The translations under genes and the position numbers were made by a program. A stretch of 34,298 nucleotides of DNA from IMG/VR virus record IMGVR_UViG_3300020042_004973, positions 1 to 34,298 of that record; one strand, 5' to 3'. Below the pieces are notes generated by a model. The model ran no database searches and was not told where the DNA came from. It worked only from the letters and a program-made list of their open reading frames with translations. This stretch comes from a virus (Duplodnaviria; Caudoviricetes). Each line of letters opens with the position of its first letter. Positions within the stretch are counted from its first letter, which is position 1. Positions 13,185 through 34,298 of the stretch are shown here, piece by piece.

Positions 13185-13186
13185 TC

Positions 13187-13618: not shown

Positions 13619-13625
13619 AGACGCT

Positions 13626-13859
13626 ATGGCTAAAAATCCTAATTTATCTGTTGGCAGGGGTGAGAAGTTACCCGTAAGCAGGGGTGCTGGGTTAACGGCT
13701 AAAGGTCGAGCCAAGACAAATCGTGCAACAGGTAGTAAACTTAAAGCACCAACTAAAGACCCAAAGAATCCTCGTCACAAGTCTTTTTGTGCAAGGTCTA
13801 AGTCTTGGAAGGGTGAACGTGGTCGAGCCGCTAGAAGAAGATGGGGGTGTAGCAGATGA
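13626..13859 (+). CDS. Small highly basic phage protein
   Basis: Likely start MAKNPNL. GLTAKGR...RHKSFCAR...RRRWGC pattern is common in aquatic phage late regions. Confidence 0.7.
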   Translation: MAKNPNLSVGRGEKLPVSRGAGLTAKGRAKTNRATGSKLKAPTKDPKNPRHKSFCARSKSWKGERGRAARRRWGCSR

Positions 13860-13999
13860 AAGCCGGACTATATGCAAATATTCACAAGAAACGTGCCAGA
13901 ATCGAAAAAGGTTCTGGAGAGCGTATGAGAAAGCCCGGTAGTAAAGGTGCGCCTACTGCTAAAGCCTTTCGTAAAAGTAAGCGCACAGCCAAGCGTTAG
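13856..13999 (+). CDS. 47-aa highly basic protein, not in the ORF track
   Basis: MKAGLYANIHKKRARIEKGSGERMRKPGSKGAPTAKAFRKSKRTAKR*. ATGA overlap with the upstream gene. Confidence 0.7.
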   Translation: MKAGLYANIHKKRARIEKGSGERMRKPGSKGAPTAKAFRKSKRTAKR

Positions 14000-15305: not shown

Positions 15306-15513
15306 AAAAACTCCAATAAGTAAAAAGTAAACCGGATATAACGATGCAAGCAATGATTTTTTTGCCCCAATGCTTAAATTCTTTCTTAAGCGGAGGCAAC
15401 ATAGCTCTTTGCCATGCCAACATATCTGGGTCTGATTCTCTAGGTAATGGTTTGGTATAGCGACTACCTATCTTGACCCCTGTGCTAGTGGTGTGCGGCG
15501 TTTGCATCTTCAT
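15298..15513 (-). CDS. Small protein with a C-terminal transmembrane anchor
   Basis: Likely start MKMQTPHTTSTGVKIG with RBS AAGGGG. Hydrophobic C-terminus. Confidence 0.6.
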   Translation of the reverse strand: MKMQTPHTTSTGVKIGSRYTKPLPRESDPDMLAWQRAMLPPLKKEFKHWGKKIIACIVISGLLFTYWSFYV

Positions 15514-15655
15514 ACCCCTTGATAAGCTCAACCATGACATTGCTTAAGTGAACAAGCATCTGTGCATCTTGCTCAGCGATGGTATTGCAAGCACCAATAA
15601 ACCATTTAAGGTCAGCTTGTAGTGCCTTTGCTTCTGCTAGTAAGTGTTCGTTCAT
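15485..15655 (-). CDS. 56-aa hypothetical protein, not in the ORF track
   Basis: MNEHLLAEAKALQADLKWFIGACNTIAEQDAQMLVHLSNVMVELIKGYEDANAAHH*. RBS AGGGG. Fills the intergenic gap. Confidence 0.6.
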   Translation of the reverse strand: MNEHLLAEAKALQADLKWFIGACNTIAEQDAQMLVHLSNVMVELIKGYEDANAAHH

Positions 15656-15722
15656 TGCTATCCCCTGTGAGTGTTAGTCCCGGCTACTCTGAATACCATG
15701 CCGGGGATGGCTCGTAACAGCG

Positions 15723-16097
15723 TCAGAGTTCGCTACTCTCAGGGGCACTGAGAAGCTCTACAGCCACGATACATTTACCTCCTGCAATCGGTATACCCCT
15801 GCGTACCGAAACGTGACCTACTTGTTTATCATCATCAAATAACCCAGCGTCTTGCAAAGCATCTAAGACAGGCTTCACGCAATTATCAATATCCATTAGT
15901 CTCAAATTCCTTGGGCGCAATATGATATTGACTTCCACTATCGCCCCCCCAAAGGATTCTAATTGCTGCACTGCAACATACTCCTGTACCGCTAACTTAA
16001 AGTCACGACCACGCTTACTGATAAACCTTCTGTGACCAGAGGCTATCCAGTAATTGTTGATACTAGGCGGGTAAGGTAAGTGCAGCACATGACGCAT
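15723..16097 (-). CDS. rusA: RusA Holliday junction resolvase
   Basis: LPYPPSINNYW, DIDNCVKPVLDAL..AGLFDDDKQV. Confidence 0.9.
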   Translation of the reverse strand: MRHVLHLPYPPSINNYWIASGHRRFISKRGRDFKLAVQEYVAVQQLESFGGAIVEVNIILRPRNLRLMDIDNCVKPVLDALQDAGLFDDDKQVGHVSVRRGIPIAGGKCIVAVELLSAPESSEL

Positions 16098-16108
16098 ACG
16101 GGTTAACC

Positions 16109-16399
16109 CTAGAAAGGTACTTCGTTGTCATCTATGCTGTTTACTTCCTTGGGATACTGCGTAGGTCTACCGTCTTGATTCTTCCAAGCATCAGTTTCCT
16201 CTGCCACCTTAATCCAAGGCTTGCCTGTCTTAGTGGTCTGTGCCCACACTGCTAACTTGATTGTTTCCCCTGCCTTGTAGTCACGGGTGAGTACCATGCC
16301 ACCTTTAAACTCAGGAGCAAATTCACTCTTACGTTCTTTGACTTGAAAACAATATGCTTTCCCATCTGGTACTTTGAATTCGCCTTGATACTCAGCCAT
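16109..16399 (-). CDS. SSB-like single-stranded DNA-binding protein
   Basis: Follows the annealase. Acidic C-terminus DDNEVPF mimics the SSB tail. Confidence 0.6.
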   Translation of the reverse strand: MAEYQGEFKVPDGKAYCFQVKERKSEFAPEFKGGMVLTRDYKAGETIKLAVWAQTTKTGKPWIKVAEETDAWKNQDGRPTQYPKEVNSIDDNEVPF

Positions 16400-17222
16400 T
16401 TTGTTCTCCTGCATTAGCGATTGATTGATTTAAGACTGTTTTCTGGATACTGGTAAACGTCTCGATATAACCCTCATTGGCACGGGCGAGAGCTTTACAT
16501 TTCTCTTTCTTCTCCCCGCCATTAAGTTTTTTCGACTTTCCAATCTTTTCGCATAGTGTCGCAAACTGCAAAATCCATTCTTCTACGTCTACTGCGAATG
16601 AATATGCTTGCTCCATATCAGGAACCATAAGAGGAATCGTGCCAATGGCTTCAAAAGGCTCTAAAACGTCCTCTACGGCGTTTTCAGCCAGTTCGGGTAG
16701 TGGTTTTAAGGGTACAGCGTCAAAACGCCCCATATCCTTTGTTTTAGGTTCAAAGTCTTGCACTTCCTCTGGACTGTAGAAACCCGTCACACTGCCCGGA
16801 AACACAGTTCTAATGCCTTCAGAGATACAGCGTGACCTGAGCATCGCCCGTGGGAATTTCTGCCACCCACTGCCGGGCTTCACTAACCCAATGCGTGTGG
16901 CTTGTTCAATAGTCCATTCAATGCTAACTCTGCCGCCATTAGGGTGTGAGAAAACACCGACAACAATGGTATCGGTGTAAATAGTCCATTCCACCTTACC
17001 GCCAGCATTCTGAAACCGTGCAAGCATCGCATCTGCTTTGAGTGCGGGTCTACCTTGGATAATATGGAAATCTCTTGCTGCCGTGGCTGGGTGCAAACCT
17101 TCTGCTTGAGCTACTGCCATTAGTGCTAAGACTTCGTTTTCGTTCTTCATGCCAAATAGCCCTGACTTAGCTATAGCACTCGCCATACTTTGCATATCTT
17201 GAAACGGAATAATGTTACTCAT
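16392..17222 (-). CDS. RecT/Redbeta-like single-strand annealing protein
   Basis: HIIQGRPAL.ADAM, WQKFPRAMLRSRC.SEGIR..FP...G.Y.PEE. Adjacent to the YqaJ exonuclease. Confidence 0.78.
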   Translation of the reverse strand: MSNIIPFQDMQSMASAIAKSGLFGMKNENEVLALMAVAQAEGLHPATAARDFHIIQGRPALKADAMLARFQNAGGKVEWTIYTDTIVVGVFSHPNGGRVSIEWTIEQATRIGLVKPGSGWQKFPRAMLRSRCISEGIRTVFPGSVTGFYSPEEVQDFEPKTKDMGRFDAVPLKPLPELAENAVEDVLEPFEAIGTIPLMVPDMEQAYSFAVDVEEWILQFATLCEKIGKSKKLNGGEKKEKCKALARANEGYIETFTSIQKTVLNQSIANAGEQNG

Positions 17223-17232
17223 AATGTGCCCC

Positions 17233-18135
17233 TTATTTGACTAGAAACCGGCGTGAACCGGGCATTTCGACGATAAACTTTGTATAAACATCTGGCATCG
17301 CTGTTTTAAACGCATCTACAGAGAATCGCTTGCTACTTGCTGCACTTTTCCATGTCACAAGCGTAGTACCGTCTACACCACGAATCTCAGCCTTATCAGC
17401 CATTAAGTTGCGTATCTGTAATTCCACAACTTCCGCTTTTTGTTCAAGTGCTTTAATTTGACTCTTAGCCTGTCGCAAATAGTCAACGGCTTGTTCAATT
17501 GTTTGAGTAGCTGTAATAACTGTATCGGGTGATGAGGTTGGGTAGGCAAGTTTGGTTTGCTCAACACTTTCTGGGGTTGGCGTTTCGCCCGATACCACGC
17601 AAGCCCACAACTTAGCTTGTGCTTGAATGAAGGCATCTTTCTCTTGGTCACTAAAGTGAAAGTCGAATGTTTTGAACTCTTGACCGCCAAAGAGTACAGC
17701 CAGCACGACTTTTGAGACATTGTGTACAACAGCTTCATGTAAACACTGTGCGTAATCTGCGGCTGGTACACGGTTCTCGTCTTGGTCGAACTTGTTGCGA
17801 ACTTGGGCATTATAATTTTTGGCTTCAATAAGAGTCGTTCCATCGACCGATATGAAGTCGAAATGCGACTTAAGCCAAGCCTCTTTACTGTGAGAGAGCG
17901 CATAATCTGCTTCCTTAATTTCAAAGCCTAAATGATCTTGTGCAAGTCTGCCAATCAAGGGCTGCATGATGTGCCCCATGCGTACTGGCTCTAAATCGCT
18001 AATATCTTCACGTTCGTACTTGCCCTGCTTGATTAAGATAGCCTCTACAGCCTTACCATTAGCTGCCATGCGTGAATCACCAGACCACCATGCAGAGTTG
18101 CGTACTGCGGGGGCGAAATCGTCTCTATCGTTCAT
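17233..18135 (-). CDS. YqaJ-like (lambda-exonuclease family) recombination nuclease
   Basis: Likely start MNDRDDF. SHFDF...LIEAKN...Y.AQC.H...VLAVLFGG and a C-terminal TWK...SRRFLVK. Confidence 0.82.
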   Translation of the reverse strand: MNDRDDFAPAVRNSAWWSGDSRMAANGKAVEAILIKQGKYEREDISDLEPVRMGHIMQPLIGRLAQDHLGFEIKEADYALSHSKEAWLKSHFDFISVDGTTLIEAKNYNAQVRNKFDQDENRVPAADYAQCLHEAVVHNVSKVVLAVLFGGQEFKTFDFHFSDQEKDAFIQAQAKLWACVVSGETPTPESVEQTKLAYPTSSPDTVITATQTIEQAVDYLRQAKSQIKALEQKAEVVELQIRNLMADKAEIRGVDGTTLVTWKSAASSKRFSVDAFKTAMPDVYTKFIVEMPGSRRFLVK

Positions 18136-18331
18136 TTGATTGCTCCAAGTGGTATTGCGCCACAATCTTGCCGCTTGGCAGGATAAGTGTTTTGGTTTTT
18201 ATGTCATTACCTTGTTGGCGTAACTCTTTAATCCGTGCTGCTAAGCGAAAGCACCCACACCCTGCTAATGCTTCCATAGGTGTTAGTGGTGCTTGTTTGA
18301 GTTGATTGAGTATCCATGTGTTTTGTTTCAT
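18125..18331 (-). CDS. Winged helix-turn-helix DNA-binding protein
   Basis: LTPMEAL..CGCFRLAARIKELR..G..I motif. Confidence 0.78.
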   Translation of the reverse strand: MKQNTWILNQLKQAPLTPMEALAGCGCFRLAARIKELRQQGNDIKTKTLILPSGKIVAQYHLEQSNER

Positions 18332-18334
18332 GGC

Positions 18335-18520
18335 TTACTCCTTTGGCTCGAAGTATTTAGCAAGTTTGCCGCAACCAACGTAATCCCAACTTCGCTCACT
18401 TTCAGCAAATGTTGCAGCAACTTTAGGTAAGCCCGTGACTAGGCTAATACCGTCTGGTCGATAGCATTTAATGTCTTTCAGGTGTTTGCAATTGATACAG
18501 AATTTAGTTTCTGTTGTCAT
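18335..18520 (-). CDS. Small Cys-rich (possible Zn-binding) protein
   Basis: CINCKH...C...CG..AKYFEPK. RBS AGGGG. Confidence 0.65.
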   Translation of the reverse strand: MTTETKFCINCKHLKDIKCYRPDGISLVTGLPKVAATFAESERSWDYVGCGKLAKYFEPKE

Positions 18521-18567
18521 GATAGTGCCCCTATGTGTGAGTTGATATACGAATCAATACAGATGTG

Positions 18568-18596
18568 ACTTTATACTATTACTTATCGTGTTGCAA
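18568..18596 (-). promoter_or_regulatory. Putative sigma70 promoter for the recombination operon
   Basis: Minus strand TTGCAA-N17-TAAAGT upstream of the 18520 start. Confidence 0.45.
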
Positions 18597-18659
18597 GTGC
18601 TACTGTTGTATTTCTGCTATTTATCTTAATTTCTGTGTAAATACTATGTAGACCTACTA

Positions 18660-18905
18660 TGTTCCTCGCAAAAACCCCCCTACCCCAAAGAGTATGAAGA
18701 TAGGTGCGGTGTTCCTCGGCTCTTGCGAGCAGCTACATGGCAATATTGCTATTGTCCCCCTCGGCTTGTAGCTTCAACCAGCCGCCCTGATTCTTTCGGA
18801 TTTGCACCGGCTCACTAACAACATGGCTTACAGGGATTCCGTTTCTCGATAGCCGCCTGAATTGTGGGCGCATTGTTAACGCAATCGTTACGGTTGCAAT
18901 GGGTA
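18660..18905 (-). ncRNA. Putative structured RNA of unknown class ending in a G-tract
   Basis: Stems AGCUACA/UGUAGCU, CAAUA-GCAA-UAUUG, GCUC-GCAA-GAGC, AGCCGG/CUGGUU. Ends in GGGGUAGGGGGG. No credible ORF with an RBS. Confidence 0.5.
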
Positions 18906-18907
18906 AC

Positions 18908-19025
18908 AAAAAAGCCGCTTTAGAGTGCACCTTGTTGGTCGACCCACCTTTGGGGGCGGGACATTCTTTGATAAATCATCTCCACGACATTTATCAAAAA
19001 ATCAAGATACACACTAAAACGGCTT
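18908..19025 (-). ncRNA. c4-like antisense RNA (three-way junction, terminator-like outer stem)
   Basis: Outer stem AAGCCGUUUUAGUGUGUAUCUUG/CAAGGUGCACUCUAAAGCGGCUU followed by a U-run. Two inner hairpins. Junction GUCGACCAA is complementary to upstream UUGGUCGAC (19032-19040). Confidence 0.65.
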
Positions 19026-19052
19026 AGATTTGTCGACCAAGACAACGGCAAC

Positions 19053-19081
19053 ACAATATCACACCTTTTTTTAATCTGCAA
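19053..19081 (-). promoter_or_regulatory. sigma70 promoter driving the c4-like RNA
   Basis: TTGCAG-N17-TATTGT with an extended -10 TG. Overlapped by inverted repeat CACACCTT/AAGGTGTG. Confidence 0.6.
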
Positions 19082-19113
19082 GGTGTGCGCGAGGGGGGGT
19101 TGCAATTTATTTT

Positions 19114-19200
19114 CTAATCCTTTCCCCGGAAACATACGGCAACCATTAGCACCAACACGACAGCACAGTAGAAAAGAAAGACATAATCATAAATATTCAT
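19114..19200 (-). CDS. 28-aa single-pass membrane peptide, not in the ORF track
   Basis: MNIYDYVFLFYCAVVLVLMVAVCFRGKD*. RBS GAGG. Confidence 0.55.
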   Translation of the reverse strand: MNIYDYVFLFYCAVVLVLMVAVCFRGKD

Positions 19201-19274
19201 AAGTTACCTCTATTTGAAATAAGCCCTACAAGCGATTTGTTTATAAACCAATACCAATACAAGTACAAAGCAAT

Positions 19275-19296
19275 AAAAAAGCCCACAAGGGGCTTT
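19275..19296 (-). terminator. Intrinsic terminator ending the early small-gene operon
   Basis: AAAGCCC-CTTGT-GGGCTTT followed by TTTATT on the minus strand, just after the 19317 stop. Confidence 0.7.
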
Positions 19297-19316
19297 AAAT
19301 AGGTTTAAGAGTATGT

Positions 19317-19559
19317 TTATGCTGTCTTTTGCTCTTGGATACTGTTTAACAGTCTCTCAACGGCACTAACCATGTTGTCCATGATGTTCTCAATGTCTAG
19401 GTACTCGAAAGGTTCCCACACGGTAACAAGTGGTGCATCGTCCTCGTCCCTTTCGTCATCATTGTATAAGTCTAGTATTTCCTGATAAGTTAAATCTGGC
19501 GGGTAATCAGAGAGACATTGACCGATTGCAAAGTCTTGGGCTATCTCTAAGTTTGTCAT
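19317..19559 (-). CDS. Acidic early protein
   Basis: 80 aa, strongly Asp/Glu-rich. RBS GAGG. Confidence 0.7.
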   Translation of the reverse strand: MTNLEIAQDFAIGQCLSDYPPDLTYQEILDLYNDDERDEDDAPLVTVWEPFEYLDIENIMDNMVSAVERLLNSIQEQKTA

Positions 19560-19729
19560 GCTGTCACCTCATTTTGTTTGCGTACCTCTGCAATGGCTTT
19601 CTGTGCTCTTGACAACGTATCAGCATCAATTTTGTGACATTCGCTAGAGGGTTCTTGTTCGTCTACAAAATACTCAGCAAGAGTTAATGCAAATTCGATT
19701 GCTTGAAATTGCTCTTTTGTGATGTGCAT
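19556..19729 (-). CDS. 57-aa early protein, not in the ORF track
   Basis: MHITKEQFQAIEFALTLAEYFVDEQEPSSECHKIDADTLSRAQKAIAEVRKQNEVTA*. AGGGGCAC RBS and ATGA coupling. Confidence 0.65.
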   Translation of the reverse strand: MHITKEQFQAIEFALTLAEYFVDEQEPSSECHKIDADTLSRAQKAIAEVRKQNEVTA

Positions 19730-19738
19730 CATGTGCCC

Positions 19739-19966
19739 CTAGTTTACGATTAGGTTATCTGAGAGTTTGCCGATGTAGCAAGTACCGATATTGCTATAAA
19801 TAGCGCAGTAAACCCTACGCCATTTCCCGTTATATCGAACCATATACCGTGTAGGGATACGTTTACCGTAACCCGTTGCGGTATAGGTCAATCCCTTTTC
19901 TTGCCACGATAGCGGCATTTCTTTAGATTCAAGCTCTACTACAGATTCATTTTGTTTGATGTACAT
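19739..19966 (-). CDS. Early hypothetical protein
   Basis: TATGYGKRIPT.YMV...GKWRRVY...YSN.GT.Y. AGGGGCA RBS. Confidence 0.7.
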   Translation of the reverse strand: MYIKQNESVVELESKEMPLSWQEKGLTYTATGYGKRIPTRYMVRYNGKWRRVYCAIYSNIGTCYIGKLSDNLIVN

Positions 19967-19975
19967 AATATGCCC

Positions 19976-20080
19976 CTAGTTTGCGAGTATGTTTAATGAT
20001 TCGTTTACGAATACGAATGTAACGATAGCAATTGCAATCCATGCGAGTACGTTAGCTAAAATCTCTTGTTTGCGTGTCAT
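19976..20080 (-). CDS. 34-aa single-pass membrane peptide immediately downstream of the hammerhead
   Basis: MTRKQEILANVLAWIAIAIVTFVFVNESLNILAN*. AAGGGGCAC RBS. Confidence 0.65.
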   Translation of the reverse strand: MTRKQEILANVLAWIAIAIVTFVFVNESLNILAN

Positions 20081-20100
20081 ATAGTGCCCCTTAAGTGTTT

Positions 20101-20154
20101 ACGATAGACACCTATTGCTAGGTGTTTCGGATATTGAACCCTCATCAGTATCGT
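20101..20154 (-). ncRNA. Type I hammerhead ribozyme
   Basis: Minus strand reads ACGAUA CUGAUGA GGGU-UCAAU-AUCC GAA ACACCUA-GCAA-UAGGUGU C UAUCGU. Complete catalytic core, three paired stems, GUC cleavage triplet, intergenic and sense to the operon. Confidence 0.92.
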
Positions 20155-20162
20155 TTATGCCC

Positions 20163-20405
20163 CTAAAGTACGAAATTAGATAGTTTGTTACCGAAACAGT
20201 AGTCACCAGTAGACAATTTATAGAGTGGTAATGTTTTGCGGTAAAAAGGTGAGTACACATCTTCAACGTGCTCAAGACCAACGATTGTCCCTCTATCTAC
20301 TGTGCCACTCTCGTTAATAATCTTGCAATCAACCACGGCGGTCTTGAATAGTTTGTACTTACCTTGATTCTCTAAGTAATCTTGATGATTGAATATTTGA
20401 GACAT
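20163..20405 (-). CDS. Early hypothetical protein
   Basis: ORF with RBS AGGAG, tightly packed in the operon. Confidence 0.65.
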   Translation of the reverse strand: MSQIFNHQDYLENQGKYKLFKTAVVDCKIINESGTVDRGTIVGLEHVEDVYSPFYRKTLPLYKLSTGDYCFGNKLSNFVL

Positions 20406-20407
20406 AA

Positions 20408-20629
20408 TTACGCTCTCCTCTTTTCAACAGGGTTATGCTGCGTTAACTTAGTGGATAAGTCTGCAAGACCGAAAGCGAATAACTGGTCGTTCCAATTGTC
20501 ACGGTTTGCAGCGTGCCAGTTGCCGTAACTGCTATTTGAGCGAGTAATAATATATACAATGCCCTTGCAATAGCCGATGTATGCGCCATGCTTAAACACA
20601 GACTTTTCAATGTTTGGATAGGCTCTCAT
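20408..20629 (-). CDS. Early hypothetical protein
   Basis: ATGA-coupled ORF. Confidence 0.65.
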   Translation of the reverse strand: MRAYPNIEKSVFKHGAYIGYCKGIVYIITRSNSSYGNWHAANRDNWNDQLFAFGLADLSTKLTQHNPVEKRRA

Positions 20630-20898
20630 GCTTGCACCTTCGAAGCATCAAAACAGAATGTGTAGCCCTTACCGTCTGCGCTATCACCAAAGCGCATATC
20701 GTCTAAGCACCAGTCAAGCGAGTGTTTAGCCACAAGAGCCTTAACTGCTTCAAAGTGTGCCAGTTCGTATGATTCAGAGTAAGGGTAAGGGATAGTGGCT
20801 TCAAAGCCTTTGATGCTGCCTGAACCTACGGTATAGGCTTTAATGCGAGTGCCACGAGTGTTAGTAACTGGTATGCACTTGGTGTGAATTGCAATCAT
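20626..20898 (-). CDS. Early hypothetical protein
   Basis: AIHTK...TNTRGTRIKA motif. AGGGGCAC RBS. Confidence 0.7.
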   Translation of the reverse strand: MIAIHTKCIPVTNTRGTRIKAYTVGSGSIKGFEATIPYPYSESYELAHFEAVKALVAKHSLDWCLDDMRFGDSADGKGYTFCFDASKVQA

Positions 20899-20968
20899 AT
20901 TGTGCCCCTAGTGAGTGATGCTGCACCCTTTACGAGAGAGTGCAGCGAGAGAATAGTTTAATTGGCAG

Positions 20969-21181
20969 CTAAAACGTTCGCCGCCGAACAATTAAATGCT
21001 TGATACATTCTAAACAGCCACACTCTACAACATCAGTTTTAGCGGCTGCTCTAACCTCTGCCATTGTGTCGAACCCTCTAACGTGCACAATGTCATCGTT
21101 CCACCGAAAGCCATAAGGTAGGAAAACCATATAACCATCTTCGCATTGGTCAACGTCATTTTTTTTTAGCTTGTATTTCAT
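20969..21181 (-). CDS. First early gene, hypothetical (C-terminal CxCxxC)
   Basis: RBS AGGGG. Lies downstream of the early promoter. Confidence 0.65.
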   Translation of the reverse strand: MKYKLKKNDVDQCEDGYMVFLPYGFRWNDDIVHVRGFDTMAEVRAAAKTDVVECGCLECIKHLIVRRRTF

Positions 21182-21236
21182 TATGTAACCCCTAAGTAGT
21201 TAAATATGATGCACTGTTACGTCAGTACATATAGTA

Positions 21237-21264
21237 AGTATAACCTATCATATAGCATTGTCAA
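21237..21264 (-). promoter_or_regulatory. Strong sigma70 early promoter
   Basis: TTGACA-N16-TATACT pointing into the early operon. Confidence 0.7.
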
Positions 21265-21507
21265 TACATTTCGTTAGATTTTGTTGCTATATATACACTA
21301 CTCTATATAACTGTATTACATATACATACTATAAAGGATTATTTAGTGGTTACTATATATAAGAAATATAGTTTTTTATGTATAATCTGTTTTATATAAT
21401 AATTATAATAAATACTTAGGTACTCACTTTATCTAGTCTACCTATCTAATACTTAAGTATATATAAGGGATAGGACAATCGAAGTTTTAGGGTATTACCA
21501 CTAACCG

Positions 21508-21523
21508 TGTTCCACGTGAAACA
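21508..21523. promoter_or_regulatory. parS: parS centromere-like site
   Basis: TGTTCCACGTGAAACA matches the chromosomal parS consensus TGTTNCACGTGAAACA at all 16 positions. Intergenic. Confidence 0.8.
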
Positions 21524-21774
21524 ATATGGGCATGGGGTCACGAGCTGTATACACAATACTCATACTAGGTGTAATACGATGATGCACACTTATTGGACAT
21601 GGGGTACTGGTCACACAAGCGAATACCGAATAGCGCAACCAGTGTGCGGCAAAGACTTAGGGACATGGAATGGGTTTGAGTACGCCGGAGAGGGAGTCCC
21701 ATTCGTACCTCCCCCCAAAAAAAATATGGCTTTTCCTGTTTCTGATAATATAGACGTATTACGAGGAGTGATAT

Positions 21775-21996
21775 ATGTCAGATACATACGAAATAGATAA
21801 AGGTGTACAGTTAAGCCATAAACCAAGAGCATACGTTTACCCATACAATGATATGGAGTTAGGGGACAGTTTCTTTGTACCTAATGGGAAGATGCCAACG
21901 GTTAATGCGGCTAATTACCGTGCATTTAAGAGACTTGGGTGGAAATTCTCTGCCCGTAAGATTGATGGTGGGATTCGTGTATGGAGAACGGTATGA
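21775..21996 (+). CDS. Small putative DNA-binding protein
   Basis: IDKGV...YPY.DMELGDSFFVP...GIRVWR phage family pattern. RBS GAGGAG. Confidence 0.7.
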   Translation: MSDTYEIDKGVQLSHKPRAYVYPYNDMELGDSFFVPNGKMPTVNAANYRAFKRLGWKFSARKIDGGIRVWRTV

Positions 21997-22211
21997 TTAA
22001 CGGTGCTGCTGTCATTGACCAATTGGTTGAGAGTGCTGATGAGGCGTTTAAGCGTCAGTATTTGGATCGTGTGTGGGCGATGAGTAAGATGGATATGTTT
22101 AAAGAGCTTATGCGGGTGCATGGTGAAAGCACTAAGATGATGACTCAAGCACAAGCTGAGATTGATAACTTAAAAGCCGTGATTGCCCAATACTCTGAAG
22201 GTAAACTTTAA
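21993..22211 (+). CDS. Hypothetical coiled-coil protein
   Basis: ATGA overlap and GGAG RBS favour a start at 21993. Confidence 0.65.
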   Translation: MINGAAVIDQLVESADEAFKRQYLDRVWAMSKMDMFKELMRVHGESTKMMTQAQAEIDNLKAVIAQYSEGKL

Positions 22212-22396
22212 TGGCTGATTACCATATTGTTGATAATGGCGAGATGCTGGCTTGCGACTTTGTGGATAGCTTGATGCGTATACGCTTGCAAGAGATTGTC
22301 AAAGACTTGGAAAGCTACATTGAAGAAGGGATTGCTGACCCCGCAGATAAGAAGGTAATTAAGGCAGCAGAGGTTATTCTTGGATACATTACTTAA
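22211..22396 (+). CDS. Hypothetical protein
   Basis: TAATG-coupled ORF. Confidence 0.6.
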   Translation: MADYHIVDNGEMLACDFVDSLMRIRLQEIVKDLESYIEEGIADPADKKVIKAAEVILGYIT

Positions 22397-22589
22397 ACAA
22401 TACCTCTTTGAGACTCGCTCTGATCTATCTTTGCAGATGAGACGGGCATTGGCTTGCAAAACCAAGAAGCAGAAAATCAAACTAGCAGATGAGTGGCAAA
22501 AGAATTATTCTGAACTGATGTACAGAGAGTTAATCTCCTGTGCAAGAAACAAAGAAGTCTGTGTCAACATAGCAAATTGGGAGTTGTGA
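22380..22589 (+). CDS. Hypothetical protein
   Basis: TTG start with GAGG RBS. Fills the gap in the operon. Confidence 0.55.
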   Translation: MDTLLKQYLFETRSDLSLQMRRALACKTKKQKIKLADEWQKNYSELMYRELISCARNKEVCVNIANWEL

Positions 22590-23137
22590 TGGATGATGAA
22601 ATTAGTAATGATGACGTTGTAGGTCAAATGCTTTTTGAGAAAGCCCAAACAGATTACCCTTACCTTGCTGACAAAAACCTTGGGTTTAAATACTCTCCCG
22701 GCGAAGGCAGAGGATTACTTGAGTTTTATGGTCCTGACGAACCCGGCTCTCCTGAATACCCAAGACCGCAAGAGATTCCAATGGGTCAAGTTGGCGTACA
22801 AGTGTTTGACCCTAAAGCTCGACCAATGGATATTCTTGCAGACTACGTTAGTCATTACGGCGTTGAAAAAGACCCATACCTTAAAGAACGCTATCAACAA
22901 TTTTCTAGCTCTTTTACGCCTGAACAACAACAGCGGTTACAAGAACAATATCAGTGGTATCAAGAGCATCCAGAGTTTAAAGAAACCCGTGCTTATGAAG
23001 AATGGGCAAAAACTGTTGGTGTGCCCGGATACTTTCGCGGTTACACATTTGACCAATGGAAAGACTCTCAAGGTGCGTACACACCACAACAACTTCAATT
23101 GCTGAACCAAGTGCGTCAATATTTAGGAATTAAATGA
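22589..23137 (+). CDS. Hypothetical protein upstream of the terminase
   Basis: Likely start MDDEIS (TGATG overlap, GGAG RBS). Gln/Tyr-rich. Confidence 0.65.
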   Translation: MDDEISNDDVVGQMLFEKAQTDYPYLADKNLGFKYSPGEGRGLLEFYGPDEPGSPEYPRPQEIPMGQVGVQVFDPKARPMDILADYVSHYGVEKDPYLKERYQQFSSSFTPEQQQRLQEQYQWYQEHPEFKETRAYEEWAKTVGVPGYFRGYTFDQWKDSQGAYTPQQLQLLNQVRQYLGIK

Positions 23138-25285: not shown

Positions 25286-25852
25286 ATGATGGCTCGTATA
25301 CTTAGAGATTACAAATGTCAGGAGCATGGCTTCTTTGAAGGCTTTGAACCTACTTGTCCAGAGGGGTGCACCGATGAATTGGTTTTACAAGTCTTTCTTA
25401 AAAGTCCGGGCTTTGTTTCAGACAAGTCCAAAGCCGCAGATTCACACTTGCGAAGTCTTGCGAACGAATTCGGAATGTCTAACATCAAATCCACCCGTGA
25501 AGGAGAGAACCAATCAGGCTATCTCCAGCGCAACAACAAGTTCACGGAGAAAGAATACGCAGAAGCCGAAAAGTACGCTACCCCCAAAAAGCGTGGCAGA
25601 CCCCGCAAAGATTCCCAGAGCCAACCTACACCGCCGCCGCAGCCCCAAGAAGCCCGTGCTGGTGACTCAGCAATCTGGGGGGGCGGTTTCCAAGGCATGA
25701 ATATGGCTTCTGTCCTTGCTGGGCGTTTTGGTCAGCCTGTAAAAGATGAGACTGTGGGCTTGACACCACAAGCGGCAGGGATACAATCAGGACCTAGAAC
25801 TGACCCCAACGCAACAATGCGGGACCCCGATAACCTAAAGATTAACAAATAA
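25286..25852 (+). CDS. FmdB-like zinc-ribbon protein with a disordered C-terminus
   Basis: DYKCQEHGFFE...CPEGC. Contains KKRGRPRK (AT-hook-like). Lies between terminase and portal. Confidence 0.6.
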   Translation: MMARILRDYKCQEHGFFEGFEPTCPEGCTDELVLQVFLKSPGFVSDKSKAADSHLRSLANEFGMSNIKSTREGENQSGYLQRNNKFTEKEYAEAEKYATPKKRGRPRKDSQSQPTPPPQPQEARAGDSAIWGGGFQGMNMASVLAGRFGQPVKDETVGLTPQAAGIQSGPRTDPNATMRDPDNLKINK

Positions 25853-27480
25853 TGCGTATCCCACCAAACAATGACGAACGGGAAAACTTCTATTTAGAAC
25901 TCATGAATAAGTGCATGGTGTCTAGAGAAGAACGTAAGGCTGACTACAGCACGTTACGCTCTTACTATTTGTTTGGTGCGGCTCCTGAAGAACCTCCTGC
26001 GTACTTCAATAAGATTCATCCGCATATTGACCAACTTACATCGTTTTTGTATTCGGCTGAGACTACCCGTTTTAGTATTGCTATGGGTGCGTCAGTTCCA
26101 GACATGGAATATCGCAAGACTCCAGTTCTCACAAATGCTCTCAATGACGAATGGCTTAACTCTAATGCTGACCAAGTATTCTCAACAGCATTAACGTGGT
26201 CTCTTGTCTACAACACAACTTTTCTCAAACTTGTAGTCAGTGGTGGTATCCACCCCTACATGATTGAACCCGGCGCAATAGGCGTGTTGCGTGAAGATAC
26301 GCCTTACGTTGACCGACAAGAAGCTATTTGCCAACGCTACTACATTACAAAGTCTGAGTTGTTTGCCCGTCTGTATTCACACCCTAAGCGTGAGCAGATT
26401 GTAAAGAGAGTGACCACTAACATTAAGACTGCAAGCAGCGATGGTTCAGATGGTGGAGATGGTGTAGCCCGTATTGTTATGTCCGCTACTAACCCAACTA
26501 TCTATGGTCAAGTCAACATGGACTTGTACGGCATGAACAGGTACAACGCTCGTCTTGCTGAAGAAACCATTGAGATGCACGAATTGTGGGTCTGGAACGA
26601 TGAGATTGAAGATTATCAGGTTGTCACGATGGCAAGCCCTGATATTATTATTTACGACAGACCCGGTTCATCTTTGTTCTTAAAAGGCGAATGTCCTTTT
26701 GTCCAAATTTGTCCAAACCCTCAGTACGATTATTTCTGGGGACAGTCTGAAGTACAAAAAATGTGTCTGCTTCAAGGCTTGCGTAATAATCGCATGACTG
26801 AAGTACTAGACCTTCTTTCCAAGCAAGTCACGCCCCCAACAGCCCTCACAGGGTTTACGGGAATCTTGGATGAAAAAAACTTTGCACTGAACCGTGCTGG
26901 CGGCTTACTTTCAAGTGATATGCCAAACGCCAAGGTTGAACGCCTTGCGCCTGAAATGCCATCTAATCTCTTTGAAGTCATTCATGAGATTGATGCCATG
27001 TTCTCAGAAGTGTCTGGTATCTCTAACGTGCTTTCTGGGCGTGGCGAATCTGGTGTTCGCTCTCAGGGACACGCAAGTCAGCTTGCCCGTTTAGGTTCAA
27101 GCCGTGCTAAAAAACGTGCCCTTATTGTCGAAGATAGTCTGGAAAAAGTAGCTACACTTTATCTTAAATTGATGCAAGCCTACAACCCCACGCACTTCAA
27201 AGATACTGAAGGCACGCCTTTTATTGCTGAACAATTCACCAAAGACTTTGTGGTGAAAGTGGATGCTCACTCCAACTCTCCAATCTTTACAGAAGATACT
27301 AAGGAATTGGCGTTTAGTTTATTTAAAGCTCAAGCTATTGACAAAGATTCCTTACTTGATATGCTAGAGCCACCGGGCAAGCAATTGCTTAAAGAGAAGT
27401 TAAAGAAGCGTGAAGAAAAGGCTGCATCAGAACCCAAACCGGAACCAAAGCCGGGTAAAGCAGATTTAAAGGTAGCGTAA
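25852..27480 (+). CDS. Portal protein
   Basis: 542 aa after the terminase. CPFV...P...YFWGQSEV, EVSGISNVLSG patterns of P22/T7-like portals. Confidence 0.82.
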   Translation: MRIPPNNDERENFYLELMNKCMVSREERKADYSTLRSYYLFGAAPEEPPAYFNKIHPHIDQLTSFLYSAETTRFSIAMGASVPDMEYRKTPVLTNALNDEWLNSNADQVFSTALTWSLVYNTTFLKLVVSGGIHPYMIEPGAIGVLREDTPYVDRQEAICQRYYITKSELFARLYSHPKREQIVKRVTTNIKTASSDGSDGGDGVARIVMSATNPTIYGQVNMDLYGMNRYNARLAEETIEMHELWVWNDEIEDYQVVTMASPDIIIYDRPGSSLFLKGECPFVQICPNPQYDYFWGQSEVQKMCLLQGLRNNRMTEVLDLLSKQVTPPTALTGFTGILDEKNFALNRAGGLLSSDMPNAKVERLAPEMPSNLFEVIHEIDAMFSEVSGISNVLSGRGESGVRSQGHASQLARLGSSRAKKRALIVEDSLEKVATLYLKLMQAYNPTHFKDTEGTPFIAEQFTKDFVVKVDAHSNSPIFTEDTKELAFSLFKAQAIDKDSLLDMLEPPGKQLLKEKLKKREEKAASEPKPEPKPGKADLKVA

Positions 27481-27641
27481 TGGACACATCACAAGTTCAA
27501 CCCAAGGCAGACCAGCCCCGTGTAAGCACGGAGAATCTCAAGCGTGGCGAACAAGCCCCTGCTTTGCAATACCGCACTACAACAAAAAGTTTTAACCGTA
27601 GCTCTACACCAAGAAGCTACGGCAGAACCGTTCGGGGATAA
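27480..27641 (+). CDS. 53-aa protein with a basic C-terminus, not in the ORF track
   Basis: MDTSQVQPKADQPRVSTENLKRGEQAPALQYRTTTKSFNRSSTPRSYGRTVRG*. TAATG coupling to the portal gene. Confidence 0.6.
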   Translation: MDTSQVQPKADQPRVSTENLKRGEQAPALQYRTTTKSFNRSSTPRSYGRTVRG

Positions 27642-27656
27642 TACTAGGAGATGAAT

Positions 27657-27689
27657 ATGTATCGCAAAAGTCGCAAGTCACGGCGTTAA
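27657..27689 (+). CDS. Protamine-like micro-ORF 1 (MYRKSRKSRR)
   Basis: AGGAG 6 nt upstream of ATG. Paralogous to micro-ORF 2. Confidence 0.6.
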   Translation: MYRKSRKSRR

Positions 27690-27767
27690 AAATACCTGTT
27701 CAGGGTGTAGGGTGTGGCTTCCTTCCCTTAATAAATAGGTCGCCGCCTCTTAATACGGAGATGAAAA

Positions 27768-27806
27768 ATGCGTAAAGCTCGCAAAGGTCGTAAATCACGC
27801 AAGTAA
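27768..27806 (+). CDS. Protamine-like micro-ORF 2 (MRKARKGRKSRK)
   Basis: GGAG 7 nt upstream of ATG. Same GGAGATGAA leader as micro-ORF 1. Confidence 0.6.
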   Translation: MRKARKGRKSRK

Positions 27807-27887
27807 TTTTAGGGGTTAAGCCCTAGAATTATCGTGTAGCCAATAAGTCCTGCCGAGGGTCGGGAACCAAAAAAATTACTCCTCCTC

Positions 27888-27921
27888 TTGACAAATACTT
27901 GCATAGGATTATTCTATGCAA
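27888..27921 (+). promoter_or_regulatory. sigma70 promoter with an overlapping palindrome upstream of the head genes
   Basis: TTGACA-N16-TATTCT. Inverted repeat TTGCATAG-N7-CTATGCAA (27899-27921) spans the -10. Confidence 0.6.
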
Positions 27922-27940
27922 AATTACTTAGGGATTGATT

Positions 27941-28480
27941 ATGGCTGTGCCACCCGACCAGTTGATGAAATTAATGCAAAGTCAGAAAGATTCTGCCACT
28001 CCCGGTGGTATGCCTCCTGCTTCTGATGCCGCTATGGGAATGTCAGAGGATTCAACTCCTCCTATGGCAGCACCTATGTCAACGCCAGAACCCAAGATGG
28101 GAAACCGTGAAGCATCCATGATTAACCTTGGCATGGCGGCTGACCTTCTTGAGCAATCACTTCCTGCCCTTGGCAGTGAATCGCCTGAAGGACAAAAAGT
28201 CCTTAATGCTATTCGTATAGTCTCAGCTATTCTTGGTCCACGCAAACCTAAGACCAATGAATTGCAACAATCAGAAATTTTGCAATTGTTGCAGTCCTTA
28301 CCTCAAGCTGGCGGCGGCACACCTGAAGGTAAAGCAATGGCTAATGCTCCACAAGTTCCCGGTATGGTTCCACCCGGCGCACCTCCTCCACCACCCATCC
28401 CTCTGGGTGCTGGTGCGGGTCCTGTGCCCGGCGGTGCTATGCCTCCTCCTCCCGGCGGCGGTATGCCGCCACCAATGTAA
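27941..28480 (+). CDS. Pro/Met-rich head-assembly-region protein
   Basis: Central helical hairpin flanked by Pro-rich low-complexity tails. Confidence 0.65.
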   Translation: MAVPPDQLMKLMQSQKDSATPGGMPPASDAAMGMSEDSTPPMAAPMSTPEPKMGNREASMINLGMAADLLEQSLPALGSESPEGQKVLNAIRIVSAILGPRKPKTNELQQSEILQLLQSLPQAGGGTPEGKAMANAPQVPGMVPPGAPPPPPIPLGAGAGPVPGGAMPPPPGGGMPPPM

Positions 28481-28490
28481 AGGAATCACA

Positions 28491-28676
28491 ATGGATTTGT
28501 TCAAACCCCGTGGTGCTTCGGCTCCTCGTAATCCTACAGACAACAGCCAGAAAAATGGTCAGATTGTTAACACCCCACGTTATTCGCAATTCGGTGGTTT
28601 AACTTCTGCTCCAAAAGCAGGACACAAAAACATGATGACTATGAGTCGTCCCGGCGACACTAAGAAAGTCATCTAA
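28491..28676 (+). CDS. 61-aa basic disordered protein
   Basis: Start MDLFKPRG with RBS AAGGA. Confidence 0.65.
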   Translation: MDLFKPRGASAPRNPTDNSQKNGQIVNTPRYSQFGGLTSAPKAGHKNMMTMSRPGDTKKVI

Positions 28677-28694
28677 CGCATTTAGGGGATAAAT

Positions 28695-29228
28695 ATGAGC
28701 TTAGAAGATATTTCGCTAGAAGCCCGTGACGAATTAGCTTTGCTTGCAAAGCAGTTGTCGGACAATCCTGAAACACGCAAAGAATTTTTGCGCCTGACCC
28801 AGAGGGTAAAGCCAAACATGGTAATTCCCGAATTGCAACTTGAGGACTTTACAAACAAAAAAGTCAATCAAGCTGAAGAACGGGTTATGCAGCTAGAAAA
28901 CAAGTTGCGTGAAAAAGACATTCGAGAGCATCTTGAGTCAAAACGCCGTGCTTTAAAAGCTAACGGCATTGCTCGTAATGATGAAGATATTCAAGAGATT
29001 GAAAAAATCATGCTCGAACAAGGTATTACTAGCCACGACACAGCAGCGCAGCATTGGGAGTGGATGAAACAAGCCGCAACCCCAACACCTACTGGATACA
29101 ACCCAAATATTATTAACAAGTTTGACTTGTCAAAATATTGGAAGAATCCACAAAGTGCTGCACGAAATGAAGCGGCTACTGCATTGCAAGAAATTAGGAA
29201 CCAAGGTCGTAAACCAATTGGTGTTTAG
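28695..29228 (+). CDS. Capsid scaffolding protein
   Basis: Charged coiled-coil protein directly upstream of the capsid gene. Confidence 0.6.
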   Translation: MSLEDISLEARDELALLAKQLSDNPETRKEFLRLTQRVKPNMVIPELQLEDFTNKKVNQAEERVMQLENKLREKDIREHLESKRRALKANGIARNDEDIQEIEKIMLEQGITSHDTAAQHWEWMKQAATPTPTGYNPNIINKFDLSKYWKNPQSAARNEAATALQEIRNQGRKPIGV

Positions 29229-29271: not shown

Positions 29272-30282
29272 ATGCCTATAGGCGGCGGAATTTTACCAGC
29301 ATCAGGTAGCTCACAATACAACGAGCTTACCTATGTCACAAGACGGGCGTTTATCCCCAAACTTGTGGTACAGCTATACAACTCAACCCCCCTAATGGCT
29401 GCTCTGATTGCAAACAGTCAACAAGCATCAGGTGGTGTGAGCCAAGTCACAGTTCCAGTTCAAGGCGCACAGTTTGTTAATGCACAATGGTCTGATTACT
29501 CTGGTTCATTTAACCAGCCATCAGTTCAGCAAGGTGCGTTTAACGCTGAGTTCAACCTTAAGCTAATGATTGCTCCAGTTCCATTCTTAGGTATGGAAGG
29601 TGCGGTTCAACAAGACTACGCAATTATTCCTCTGATTGAAGCTCGCATGAACGATGCGACCAACGTGATGATGGATGCAATGGCTACAGCCTTGTACACC
29701 AATTACACCAATACCCAACAGTTCATTGGTCTGCCCGGCGCAATTGACGATGGCACGAACATGACTACTTACGGCAACATTAACCGCACGACATTCACTT
29801 GGTGGAAGTCAAAGGTTTATAACGCTGGTAACGTCAACCCAACCCGTCAAAACATTCTTCAGTACATTTCTGGAACCGTGAAGAACGGCGCAGAAGTTCC
29901 TACTTTTGGTGTTTGCGGTTTTGGTACTTGGACTCTATTAGCTCAAGACTACGTTGGTCAAGAACAGTATGTCATTACCCCCGGTTCGGGATTTGATAGT
30001 GATGGTAACGGTCCTCAAGCAGCTTTTCGTGCGTTGATGGTTGCCGGTGTGCCAATCTATCCAGACCCATATTGCCCAGAGGGTACGGTCTACTTCATCA
30101 ACAGCAATTACCTTTCACTGTACATTCACGAACAAGGTTCGTTTGTGTTTACCGGCTTTGAATCAACTCTACCTAATTGGCAGATTGGTTACGTTGGTGC
30201 GGTGTTGATGATTGCGGAATTGGTTTCTACCAAGCCCAAGTCGATGACCCGTGTGTCTAGCTATAACTCAATTTCGATTTAA
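29272..30282 (+). CDS. Major capsid protein
   Basis: 336 aa, strong AAGGAG RBS. GLPGAIDDG..YGNINR....WW and GVPIYPDPYCPEG.VYFIN..YL patterns. Confidence 0.88.
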   Translation: MPIGGGILPASGSSQYNELTYVTRRAFIPKLVVQLYNSTPLMAALIANSQQASGGVSQVTVPVQGAQFVNAQWSDYSGSFNQPSVQQGAFNAEFNLKLMIAPVPFLGMEGAVQQDYAIIPLIEARMNDATNVMMDAMATALYTNYTNTQQFIGLPGAIDDGTNMTTYGNINRTTFTWWKSKVYNAGNVNPTRQNILQYISGTVKNGAEVPTFGVCGFGTWTLLAQDYVGQEQYVITPGSGFDSDGNGPQAAFRALMVAGVPIYPDPYCPEGTVYFINSNYLSLYIHEQGSFVFTGFESTLPNWQIGYVGAVLMIAELVSTKPKSMTRVSSYNSISI

Positions 30283-32346: not shown

Positions 32347-34298
32347 ATGGCAGCGGCAGAGCAAAAGAAAAGCTACAAAGTTGTTAAGCAATTTAAAGGG
32401 CTTAACACTAAGGCTAACCGCACAGCTATTGAAGAAGAAGAATTTTCTTGGGTTGAAAATGCACAACCTATTGGCTATGGTAATTTAAAAATTATCCCTA
32501 GCTACATTACGTCTAAAGATACAAGTAATAACGCTGTTGTCTGGGCAAATACGGTTACGCATTTAACGTCTTGCAACATTGACACAACAGATTTTGTGAT
32601 TGCGTTTCAAACAGACGGTAGCGCACAGTTTTATAACCTAGTCACTAAAGCGACAGGCAATGTGGCTGTTGCTAGTACGTTCTCTAACACTGGTGTTCTT
32701 ACAAGCCAATGGAAAAATGAACGTATGCTTATTCTTGACCCGACAAAGGGTTACTTTACTTGGGATGGCAACAATGTTGTATCTGTTGGTTCTGTCGGCA
32801 TTATTGCAGTTACTAATGGCGGTACTAGTTATACCAGCGAACCTACCGTTACTATCAGTGCGCCACTTAATGCAAACGGTACTCAAGCCAATGCAACAGC
32901 ATCCGTTTTATCTGGGGTCGTTGCGCTTGTTTCGTTAGATGATGCTGGTTCTGGTTACGGTGTCCCGCCCCCAACAATTACTATTTCTGGTGGTGGTGGT
33001 TCAGGCGCAACAGCAATTGCCGGTGTTGTTACGTTTGCGACAGGCACAGCATCAGCCGTTGTCGTAACAGGTGGAACCGGATATACAAACGCTGCTAATA
33101 CGGTTGTGACATTTGCGGGTGGGGGTGGTACAAACGCAGCCGGTACTGCCGTATTAGGCGGTGGTCAAGTCCAGCAAATCATTATGTCTAATCCCGGCTC
33201 TGGGTACACTAACGCTGCAAACTTAACGGTCACAATAACTGGCGGGGGTGGCGCAAATGCGGTTTGTAAAGGAATTGTTAATTCTGACCTTAATTGTGGC
33301 ATTTCTTCTTTTAGTGGTCGGGTCTTTATTGCTGCCGGGCGTACTATTTTTTATTCTGCTGCGGATTCCTACACCGATTTCACAAGTGTTTCTGCCGGGT
33401 CTTTTGTCTTAACTGACTCAACCCTACACGGCAACATTCAGCAAATATTGTCAGCAAACAATTTTTTGTACATTTTTGGTGATAATTCAATTAACGTCTT
33501 TTCTGACGTTCGAGTAGATACCAATGGTATTACGTTATTTACCAACACAAACGTATCTGCATCTGTTGGCAGTAAACGACCAAATGCTATTTTTCCTTAT
33601 TTTCGTTCTGTGTTGTTTTTAAACGACTATGGGGTATATGCGCTTGTTGGTTCTACAACATCAAAAATTTCAGACTCTTTGGACGGGATGTTTCCTAATA
33701 TTGACTTTACCTACCCAATTTATTCAGGTCAAGTATTACTGAATAACATTCTGTGTGCAGCATTTAATTTCCGATATTACGATGCTGAATTCACGCAATC
33801 GTATCGGTATGTCCAAGCGGTGTTTTTTGAGAAAAAATGGTTTATTACTTCTCAAGGTGATGCGCTGCAATATGTGACTTCTGTGCCCGTAAACGGGTTA
33901 GTGACACTGTTTGGTACATCAGGAAATAGCCTTTTCCAACTATACGGTAATGCGTCAGCATCTATTACATCAAGAGTTCAAACGGCTTTGTTGCCAATGT
34001 CTGACCCGATTCGCACTAAACAAGCATTAAAGATTGGCATTGAGGCTACGGCAAGTAATCTTAGCTCTATTACGATGCAAGCCACAGTAGATAGTGAAAA
34101 CCAAGAAAGTCCACCGTATTCGCTTTCTAGCTTGGTGACTTGGATTAACAACAGTTTGCAAGTCATTCCTTGGACTAATAATTCTAGTACTGTTATTGGC
34201 TGGGGTCAGATTGGTTATAACTTGTACAAAACAGACGCTTCAATGTATGGAAAATACGTTGGAATCACAGTAACATCATCAAATCCCGGCTACGTTTA
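32347..34298 (+). CDS. Tail nozzle/DNA-stabilisation protein (P22 gp10/T7 gp12-like), continues to 164
   Basis: MAAAEQKKSYKVVKQFKGLNTK start. Open to the window end. Missed by the ORF track because it wraps around the join. Confidence 0.8.
   Translation, partial: MAAAEQKKSYKVVKQFKGLNTKANRTAIEEEEFSWVENAQPIGYGNLKIIPSYITSKDTSNNAVVWANTVTHLTSCNIDTTDFVIAFQTDGSAQFYNLVTKATGNVAVASTFSNTGVLTSQWKNERMLILDPTKGYFTWDGNNVVSVGSVGIIAVTNGGTSYTSEPTVTISAPLNANGTQANATASVLSGVVALVSLDDAGSGYGVPPPTITISGGGGSGATAIAGVVTFATGTASAVVVTGGTGYTNAANTVVTFAGGGGTNAAGTAVLGGGQVQQIIMSNPGSGYTNAANLTVTITGGGGANAVCKGIVNSDLNCGISSFSGRVFIAAGRTIFYSAADSYTDFTSVSAGSFVLTDSTLHGNIQQILSANNFLYIFGDNSINVFSDVRVDTNGITLFTNTNVSASVGSKRPNAIFPYFRSVLFLNDYGVYALVGSTTSKISDSLDGMFPNIDFTYPIYSGQVLLNNILCAAFNFRYYDAEFTQSYRYVQAVFFEKKWFITSQGDALQYVTSVPVNGLVTLFGTSGNSLFQLYGNASASITSRVQTALLPMSDPIRTKQALKIGIEATASNLSSITMQATVDSENQESPPYSLSSLVTWINNSLQVIPWTNNSSTVIGWGQIGYNLYKTDASMYGKYVGITVTSSNPGYV
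34178..34298. repeat. Terminal direct repeat, copy 2 (circular assembly overlap)
   Basis: Identical to 1-121. Confidence 0.95.

Follow-up and report, generated by a model that had tools for sequence, protein, structure and literature searches.

Within a 34,298-nt phage genome (Duplodnaviria; Caudoviricetes; IMG/VR virus record IMGVR_UViG_3300020042_004973, positions 1 to 34,298), referred to below as the window, two very short plus-strand open reading frames (ORFs) rich in arginine and lysine (R/K) lie between the portal gene and the head genes. They are termed micro-genes A and B (ORF-A and ORF-B) and are listed with the surrounding features in Table 1. The gene order is portal, 53-aa gene, ORF-A, a 78-nt spacer, ORF-B, approximately 130 nt of non-coding DNA, and then a Pro/Gly-rich 179-aa gene, a 61-aa gene, the probable scaffold gene, and the capsid gene. 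Each ORF is preceded by GGAGATGAA, with GGAG of the Shine-Dalgarno (SD) sequence 6 to 7 nt upstream of the ATG; the ATG within this leader is in frame for ORF-A yet abuts the SD, and it is out of frame for ORF-B. The two ORFs are spelled with differing synonymous codons, and their products would have masses of about 1.37 and 1.50 kDa. They are the only SD-led ORFs of 8 to 60 aa in the window that reach at least 45% R/K, no R/K micro-ORF was found in the early, minus-strand region of the window, and 1 of 2000 dinucleotide shuffles of the window interval yielded even one comparable ORF. A preliminary description of this DNA had placed both ORFs at these positions with 60 to 67% Arg/Lys, and both statements were borne out. 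The shared leader and good SD spacing that it noted hold in the window; among relatives, the SD with 5- to 10-nt spacing is kept, but the exact GGAGATGAA is not. It put the pair between portal and scaffold, which is broadly correct but passes over the 53-aa gene on one side and the 179-aa and 61-aa genes on the other.

Table 1. Features of the micro-gene region of the window, and relocated micro-ORF arrays in relatives (positions with a locus name refer to that locus)
Feature	Position	Strand	Remarks
Portal protein (SU10/P22-like)	25852..27480	+	context
53-aa gene	27480..27641	+	coupled to portal stop; basic C-terminal tail, net +6
Micro-gene A (ORF-A)	27657..27689	+	MYRKSRKSRR, stop; 60% R/K, net +6; SD AGGAG 27646-27650
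Small hairpin after ORF-A stop	27695..27704	+	read by eye; relatives have tetraloop hairpins there; pairs not counted
PK-A, predicted H-type pseudoknot	27709..27744	+	stem 1 AGGG/CCCU; stem 2 of 8 positions (6 paired here)
Micro-gene B (ORF-B)	27768..27806	+	MRKARKGRKSRK, stop; 67% R/K, net +8; SD GGAG 27757-27760
Hairpin immediately 3' of ORF-B stop	27807..27828	+	
PK-B, predicted second pseudoknot	27848..27884	+	long-range stem better supported than short stem
Sigma-70-like promoter box	27888..27915	+	TTGACA-N16-TATTCT; upstream of Pro/Gly-rich, scaffold-like, and major capsid genes
Probable scaffold	28695..29228	+	by position only, without family match
Major capsid protein	29272..30282	+	context
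Array	L533:3513-4190	+	
Array	L546:3513-4133	+	
Array	L598:3514-3740	+	
Array	L600:3513-3712	+	
Arrays	L548; G004:C1:14000-15130	-	all arrays listed are Arg-rich and from GC-rich relatives

The preliminary description had suggested scanning this interval in related phages for SD-preceded R/K micro-ORFs and checking them for synonymous bias. Loci were collected by portal or capsid similarity alone (158 loci), and those with a portal end and a downstream marker (121 loci, the window included) were reduced to 84 distinct intervals. Micro-ORFs were defined as SD-led ORFs of 8 to 25 aa with an ATG start and at least 45% R/K. All 84 distinct portal-to-next-gene intervals contained them (one in 22, two in 58, and three in 4), and the controls gave none on the reverse strands, none in the remaining 1.22 Mb of strand-bases, and 8 in 1660 shuffles. 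One peptide is encoded by 12 different DNA sequences, the stop is TAA in 147 of 150 micro-ORFs, and a pattern for the peptide tail and stop, applied without SD or ATG, matched the end of an SD- and ATG-bearing micro-ORF in 117 of 119 loci (118 of 120 when one GenBank locus is counted in). The ratio of nonsynonymous to synonymous substitution rates (dN/dS), computed on same-length genes compared without alignment, was 0.37 for the last ORF (ORF-B class, 81 disjoint pairs) and 0.22 for the second-last ORF (ORF-A paralog class, 62 disjoint pairs), the pairs being matched on the similarity of their flanks. Loci selected by pattern form part of the set and bias the value for the last ORF but not that for the second-last, and the composition filter by itself favors conservation. 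Both values indicate purifying selection. A simple DNA repeat or chance ORFs were rejected on the interval counts, shuffles, alignments, and dN/dS, and readthrough or frameshifting that would fuse the ORFs was rejected because the spacers (65 to 88 nt) hold no frame. Selection at the peptide level, as the preliminary description had suspected from the codons, is strongly supported by the interval counts, the dN/dS values, and the 66 of 88 distant loci given below; there is likewise strong support for ORF-A and ORF-B being real genes under purifying selection. Two annotated GenBank relatives carry the micro-genes unannotated, with antisense hypothetical ORFs called across them. Freshwater RNA libraries contain near-identical window sequence, and metatranscriptome contigs from freshwater span both ORFs (X3, 27597-27885, with zero differing letters; X4, 27630-27936) or cover ORF-A (X1, 27516-27760). 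Strand, level, and translation are not readable from these contigs, which were not counted as support because the runs were picked for this region and a control region, 3001-23000, was patchily covered (8 to 11 of 30 bins).

The composition of the peptides was compiled from 206 distinct sequences, mostly of 10 to 16 aa and present in one to about five copies per locus. R and K make up 64% of residues and D and E 0.4%; the remainder are G, A, S, T, H, Y, and M, with aliphatic residues, Phe, and Trp nearly absent. The median net charge is +8, the terminal residue is R or K in 203 of the 206, and a hydrophobic residue occurs among the last three positions in 2. As GC rises, R/(R+K) increases from 0.49 to 0.75 (rho 0.51 over 301 genes that are not phylogenetically independent) and the basic fraction stays constant at 0.60 to 0.63. 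GC-rich members are 60 to 70% basic, mostly through Arg, and the clade of the window uses mixed R/K; Arg is encoded by CGT or CGC in 1070 of 1288 codons. This composition, with its exchange of Arg and Lys with GC at constant charge, suggests that the peptide is kept for charge and flexibility and not for a fold or a sensed amino acid. No Pfam or PHROGs match was obtained for six members of 22 to 39 aa, the 10- to 12-aa window peptides being too short for the search, and no solved structure was informative for the peptides.

The portal family comprises 273 clusters at 50% identity (E below 1e-30). A distant set was assembled from searches seeded by a distant sub-alignment and a capsid alignment, giving 114 distinct usable loci, and was read with slightly looser limits, which accepted ORFs of 8 to 35 aa with an R/K content of 40% or higher lying no farther than 1 kb from the portal stop. 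By portal identity, a micro-gene was present in all 17 loci at or above 60%, 1 of 2 at 45 to 60%, 7 of 7 at 35 to 45%, and 66 of 88 below 35%, with 2 of 114 in the reverse-strand control. The pooled loci, which include pattern-selected ones, gave 255 of 279 (controls, 1 of 279 and 1 of 191). On a tree of 75 representative portals, every major branch includes carriers; the non-carriers, 16 in number, are either dispersed or grouped in a few small clades. Four non-carrier records, lacking a portal-proximal copy, were read whole (G001 to G004): G003 has the gene farther down the same operon, 1.3 kb upstream of the capsid gene, and G004 has a micro-ORF array behind a tail gene. Arrays of 3 to 5 basic ORFs of 11 to 53 aa, many of them stop/start-coupled, were seen in L533, L546, L548, L598 (four in a row), L600, and L534. 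Relocated arrays follow a homolog of the window gene at 32347-34296, a tail gene downstream of the adaptor, and this relocation indicates that the micro-genes track virion genes and not one downstream gene. None of six tested longer (array) members was present in a 15-billion-protein collection. A search with an Arg-rich pattern returned 58 micro-ORFs: 36 near a family portal or capsid gene, 5 relocated arrays, 7 instances of one sequence from a siphovirus tail-gene region (likely incidental), and the rest distant-portal or unexplained singles; no clear case was found by this search beyond podovirus-like relatives. Four loci with far P22-like portals (L555, L571, L568, and L616; E of about 1e-5 to the family profile, or weaker) have an SD-led Arg/Lys micro-gene approximately 550 to 630 nt after the portal. 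Four Arg-rich ORFs of 15 to 33 aa follow the portal at L369:1476-2140, on a 38-kb contig binned with a Chloroflexi metagenome-assembled genome (MAG).

Two predicted pseudoknots accompany the micro-genes; these and the breadth of the family go beyond the preliminary description. PK-A ends about 20 nt upstream of the ORF-B ATG, and its stem 2 has two mismatches in the window where most relatives show tandem U-G/G-U pairs. In the 59 spacers scored (of 62 non-redundant ones, three being set aside as short and divergent), 88% of cells are paired, both stems covary, and 57 double changes were counted against 16.7 in shuffled alignments; the counts are inflated by sequence relatedness, and the slid-partner control is lenient because PK-A was derived by eye from the same sequences. 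A detector for PK-A was positive upstream of most last ORFs (90 of 113) and single ORFs (27 of 37) and of few non-last ORFs (8 of 125; shuffles, 21 of 240). In 118 of 119 distinct cases the fold ends 16 to 25 nt before the ATG (allowed range, 12 to 30 nt); the predicted fold goes with its downstream ORF. It recurs with stem 1 fully changed where portals are about 30% identical, 12 distinct sequences below 40% portal identity have a PK-A-like fold, and most of the distant relatives show, by eye, other hairpins before the SD and keep the ORF. For PK-B (33 of 46 non-redundant sequences), 76% of cells are paired (stem 2, 82%; stem 1, 65%), with 34 double changes against 14.3 in shuffled alignments. 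An unanchored pseudoknot score gave means of 28.3 against 23.3 and 30.5 against 22.5 for real and shuffled sequences, and 28.1 for the downstream reverse complement; since this separation is only modest, the case for the pseudoknots rests on covariation. A known Rfam family was rejected for the window and eight loci (no gathering-threshold match; best E 0.053, far below threshold), and PK-A and PK-B are RNA motifs without an Rfam match.

We read the peptides, with a probability of about 0.5, as abundant, charge-only DNA counter-ions that would neutralize packaged DNA in the head. On this reading, charge alone would hold the Arg/Lys peptides on the DNA, and they would be taken into the head together with it, so that counter-ions encoded by the phage would stand in for polyamines. 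Precedents for such a location exist in adenovirus VII, V, and Mu, which are described as DNA-binding inside the virion (PMC4189039), and in SpV4 VP8 and phiX174 J, which are located within the capsid (PMC11281519). The micro-genes would have to be highly expressed: half-neutralizing 68,600 phosphates would take about 4,300 copies of the +8 ORF-B peptide, roughly tenfold the number of capsid protein copies in a head assumed to be T=7, and so large a demand would explain the gene duplication, the strong SDs, and the structures at both ends of the message. The PK-A end lies at what we take to be the 5' edge of the footprint of the initiating ribosome. PK-A may stabilize or enhance the message or, alternatively, might be the site at which surplus peptide represses its own synthesis, as with the T4 gene 32 pseudoknot. 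A wider picture, to which we give somewhat less than even odds, is that deeply branching and widespread short-tailed double-stranded DNA (dsDNA) phages package their genomes with thousands of copies of their own protamine-like peptides of 10 to 16 residues, made from pseudoknot-bracketed mini-messages and dosed by duplication or self-repression.

Several points weigh against a counter-ion role. According to PMC3281028, basic proteins are not evidenced as major neutralizers of phage dsDNA, which is densely packed with little room; R-arms are given as missing in motor-packaged phages (PMC7096446); and spermine, a condensing polycation, kept 30% of the wild-type genome length in opened lambda capsids (PMC3632124), so full condensation could harm ejection. 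No convincing copy was found anywhere in G001 (79% complete) or G002 (97% complete), so not all of the family carries the peptide. The sequences surveyed are related, and the counts given above are not independent events. RKxRK spacing and a terminal K or R are kept, so positions are not wholly free, and this spacing could reflect a specific partner. In view of the dense packing, the spermine effect on lambda ejection, and the relatives without the gene, the peptides would more plausibly screen the DNA in part than condense it fully.

Among other readings, it is rather unlikely that the peptides act unpackaged in the infected cell, by coating or compacting progeny DNA before packaging or, late in infection, by binding RNA, ribosomes, or the host nucleoid, with the motor stripping them off. 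The charge-only signature and late-operon position would fit equally, absence from some relatives suits an accessory function, and the ejection penalty of condensing agents (PMC3632124) would be avoided; on the other side, linkage to head or tail structural genes persists across 30%-identical portals, even after relocation, and the early region of the window has no such gene. Assembly cofactors bound in fixed, low copy to the acidic inner face of the procapsid, the portal, or ejection proteins, in the manner of a scaffold's basic tail or of the part of microvirus J that binds the capsid, are still less probable. Such a role would suit the adjoining portal, scaffold, and capsid genes, the net acidic portal and capsid proteins (-12 and -6), and the conserved RKxRK periodicity, but Arg and Lys exchange freely, length varies, the C terminus is without a hydrophobic anchor, and tandem arrays suggest dosage and not a stoichiometric site. 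There is little to recommend membrane-active polycations that would loosen the outer membrane and so aid DNA entry or lysis: membrane-active peptides in general require hydrophobic residues, which these strongly cationic peptides do not have, and although one lineage carries them behind a tail gene, the usual site is the head module and not a lysis cassette.

Two further readings place the function in the message. The preliminary description had offered Arg/Lys-sensing upstream ORFs as an alternative, that is, regulatory leader peptides that would sense charged tRNA-Arg/Lys or stall ribosomes and tune the head genes via the pseudoknots. Ahead of the capsid genes, short ORFs do alternate with conserved RNA structures, but this reading is disfavored and appears very improbable: Arg and Lys interchange with GC so that no run of one sensed residue is kept, common codons dominate, and the spacers hold no fixed frame; no plus-strand terminator-like site was found within 27300-28800, the structures lie outside the ORFs, and PK-A stands 5' of its ORF without overlap. 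Moreover, a -35-like (TTGACA-like) hexamer is conserved downstream of the last ORF in 163 of 171 distinct relatives (a clear -10 match in only 43), and arrays of 3 to 5 copies occur at relocated sites. That the structured RNA is the functional unit and the ORFs secondary would accord with two covarying pseudoknots and hairpins within 250 nt; it is hard to reconcile with dN/dS well under 1, with most of the distant relatives keeping the ORF and not these folds, and with a whole-region fold that is only modestly stable (z -2.1, pseudoknots left out), and we consider it a slim prospect.

As DNA counter-ions, the peptides would work like adenovirus VII/Mu or microvirus J/VP8 yet belong to neither group. 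Sperm protamines are short, Arg-clustered, and acid-free, a composition shared by GC-rich members here (R/(R+K) 0.75); the present peptides are much shorter, have mixed Arg/Lys in AT-richer phages, and gave no Pfam match in the six longer members, and the likeness is one of composition, probably by convergence. The microvirus J/VP8 products (phiX174, SpV4) are likewise tiny and Arg/Lys-rich, are encoded beside capsid genes, and are implicated in genome packaging (PMC11281519), and the Arg/Lys content found here is comparable in kind (60 to 67% in the window, 64% over the 206 peptides). However, microviruses have single-stranded DNA, a T=1 capsid, and no terminase, in contrast to the 34-kb terminase-portal dsDNA phage of the window, and SpV4 VP8 has 38 aa with a buried C-terminal Phe (PMC11281519), whereas the peptides here mostly have 10 to 16 aa and lack the hydrophobic C-terminal anchor, 203 of 206 ending in R or K. 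Adenovirus VII/Mu and baculovirus P6.9 are also small and Arg-rich, and they bind and compact dsDNA in the particle (PMC4189039, PMC3281028), as the peptides here would; they are longer proteins of eukaryotic viruses, and adenovirus pVII and pX are cut by the viral protease, whereas each peptide here would come directly from an ORF that has an SD, ATG, and stop of its own. The polyamines putrescine and spermidine have the same proposed job in tailed-phage heads (PMC3281028), but here the phage itself would encode the counter-ion, a ribosomal product carrying +6 to +10. The T4 gene 32 operator is alike in layout: it is an H-type pseudoknot that precedes the ribosome-binding site of a gene whose product binds nucleic acid (PMC535899), fold and binding both being predicted here; the T4 element differs in sequence and has a UUAAA-rich leader of more than 40 nt before the start compared with about 20 nt here.

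The micro-genes are conserved and unannotated, and they appear to be undescribed. Full-text literature searches returned no description of such genes in tailed phages, although the supplements of Fremin et al. 2022 may list some; a term search of a 2024 review of phage small proteins (PMC11323111) gave no occurrence of "basic" or "capsid", and passages of PMC10450192 had nothing on polycations. Such peptides would have escaped notice because ORFs of this size are passed over by gene callers and their products would be cut to fragments by trypsin; the blind spot also shows in the GenBank relatives that omit the genes and in the absence of the six longer members from the protein collection. In tailed phages, packaged DNA is generally held to be neutralized by metal ions and polyamines and not by proteins (PMC3281028; PMC7096446). 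Hundreds of phage contigs carry conserved Arg/Lys genes of 10 to 16 codons in their virion operon, which opens this view to direct testing, and if the counter-ion reading is true, encoded peptides can neutralize motor-packaged phage DNA.

The window is a 34.3-kb phage genome with a 121-nt direct terminal repeat (1-121 and 34178-34298), from which it is probably complete and circularly assembled. It encodes a terminase, the SU10/P22-like portal, the major capsid protein, and an SU10-type adaptor, and this gene set points to a podovirus-like phage. The eight genome-collection matches are short contigs (2 to 43 kb) in MAG bins of mixed taxa and point to no one host; only two GenBank phage records, both environmental, match the portal, and the group has no cultured member. 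The 53-aa gene has a conserved PKADQPRV-like motif and is common in the close clade and missing from distant loci L280 to L287. A promoter inside the portal 3' end (27338) was rejected as a conserved feature, the full promoter-like pattern occurring in only 9 of 86 relatives. The Pro/Gly-rich 179-aa gene and the 61-aa gene, which is basic (27941-28676, plus strand), lie upstream of the scaffold-like gene in both close and distant relatives, and no family match was found for either. A very basic 47-aa ORF at 13856-13999 (plus strand), without a Pfam match, ends the plus-strand late block and occurs, nameless, in gene-called collections. An inverted repeat at 27898-27922 overlaps the predicted head-gene promoter in its spacer and -10 box and is a possible operator or minus-strand terminator.
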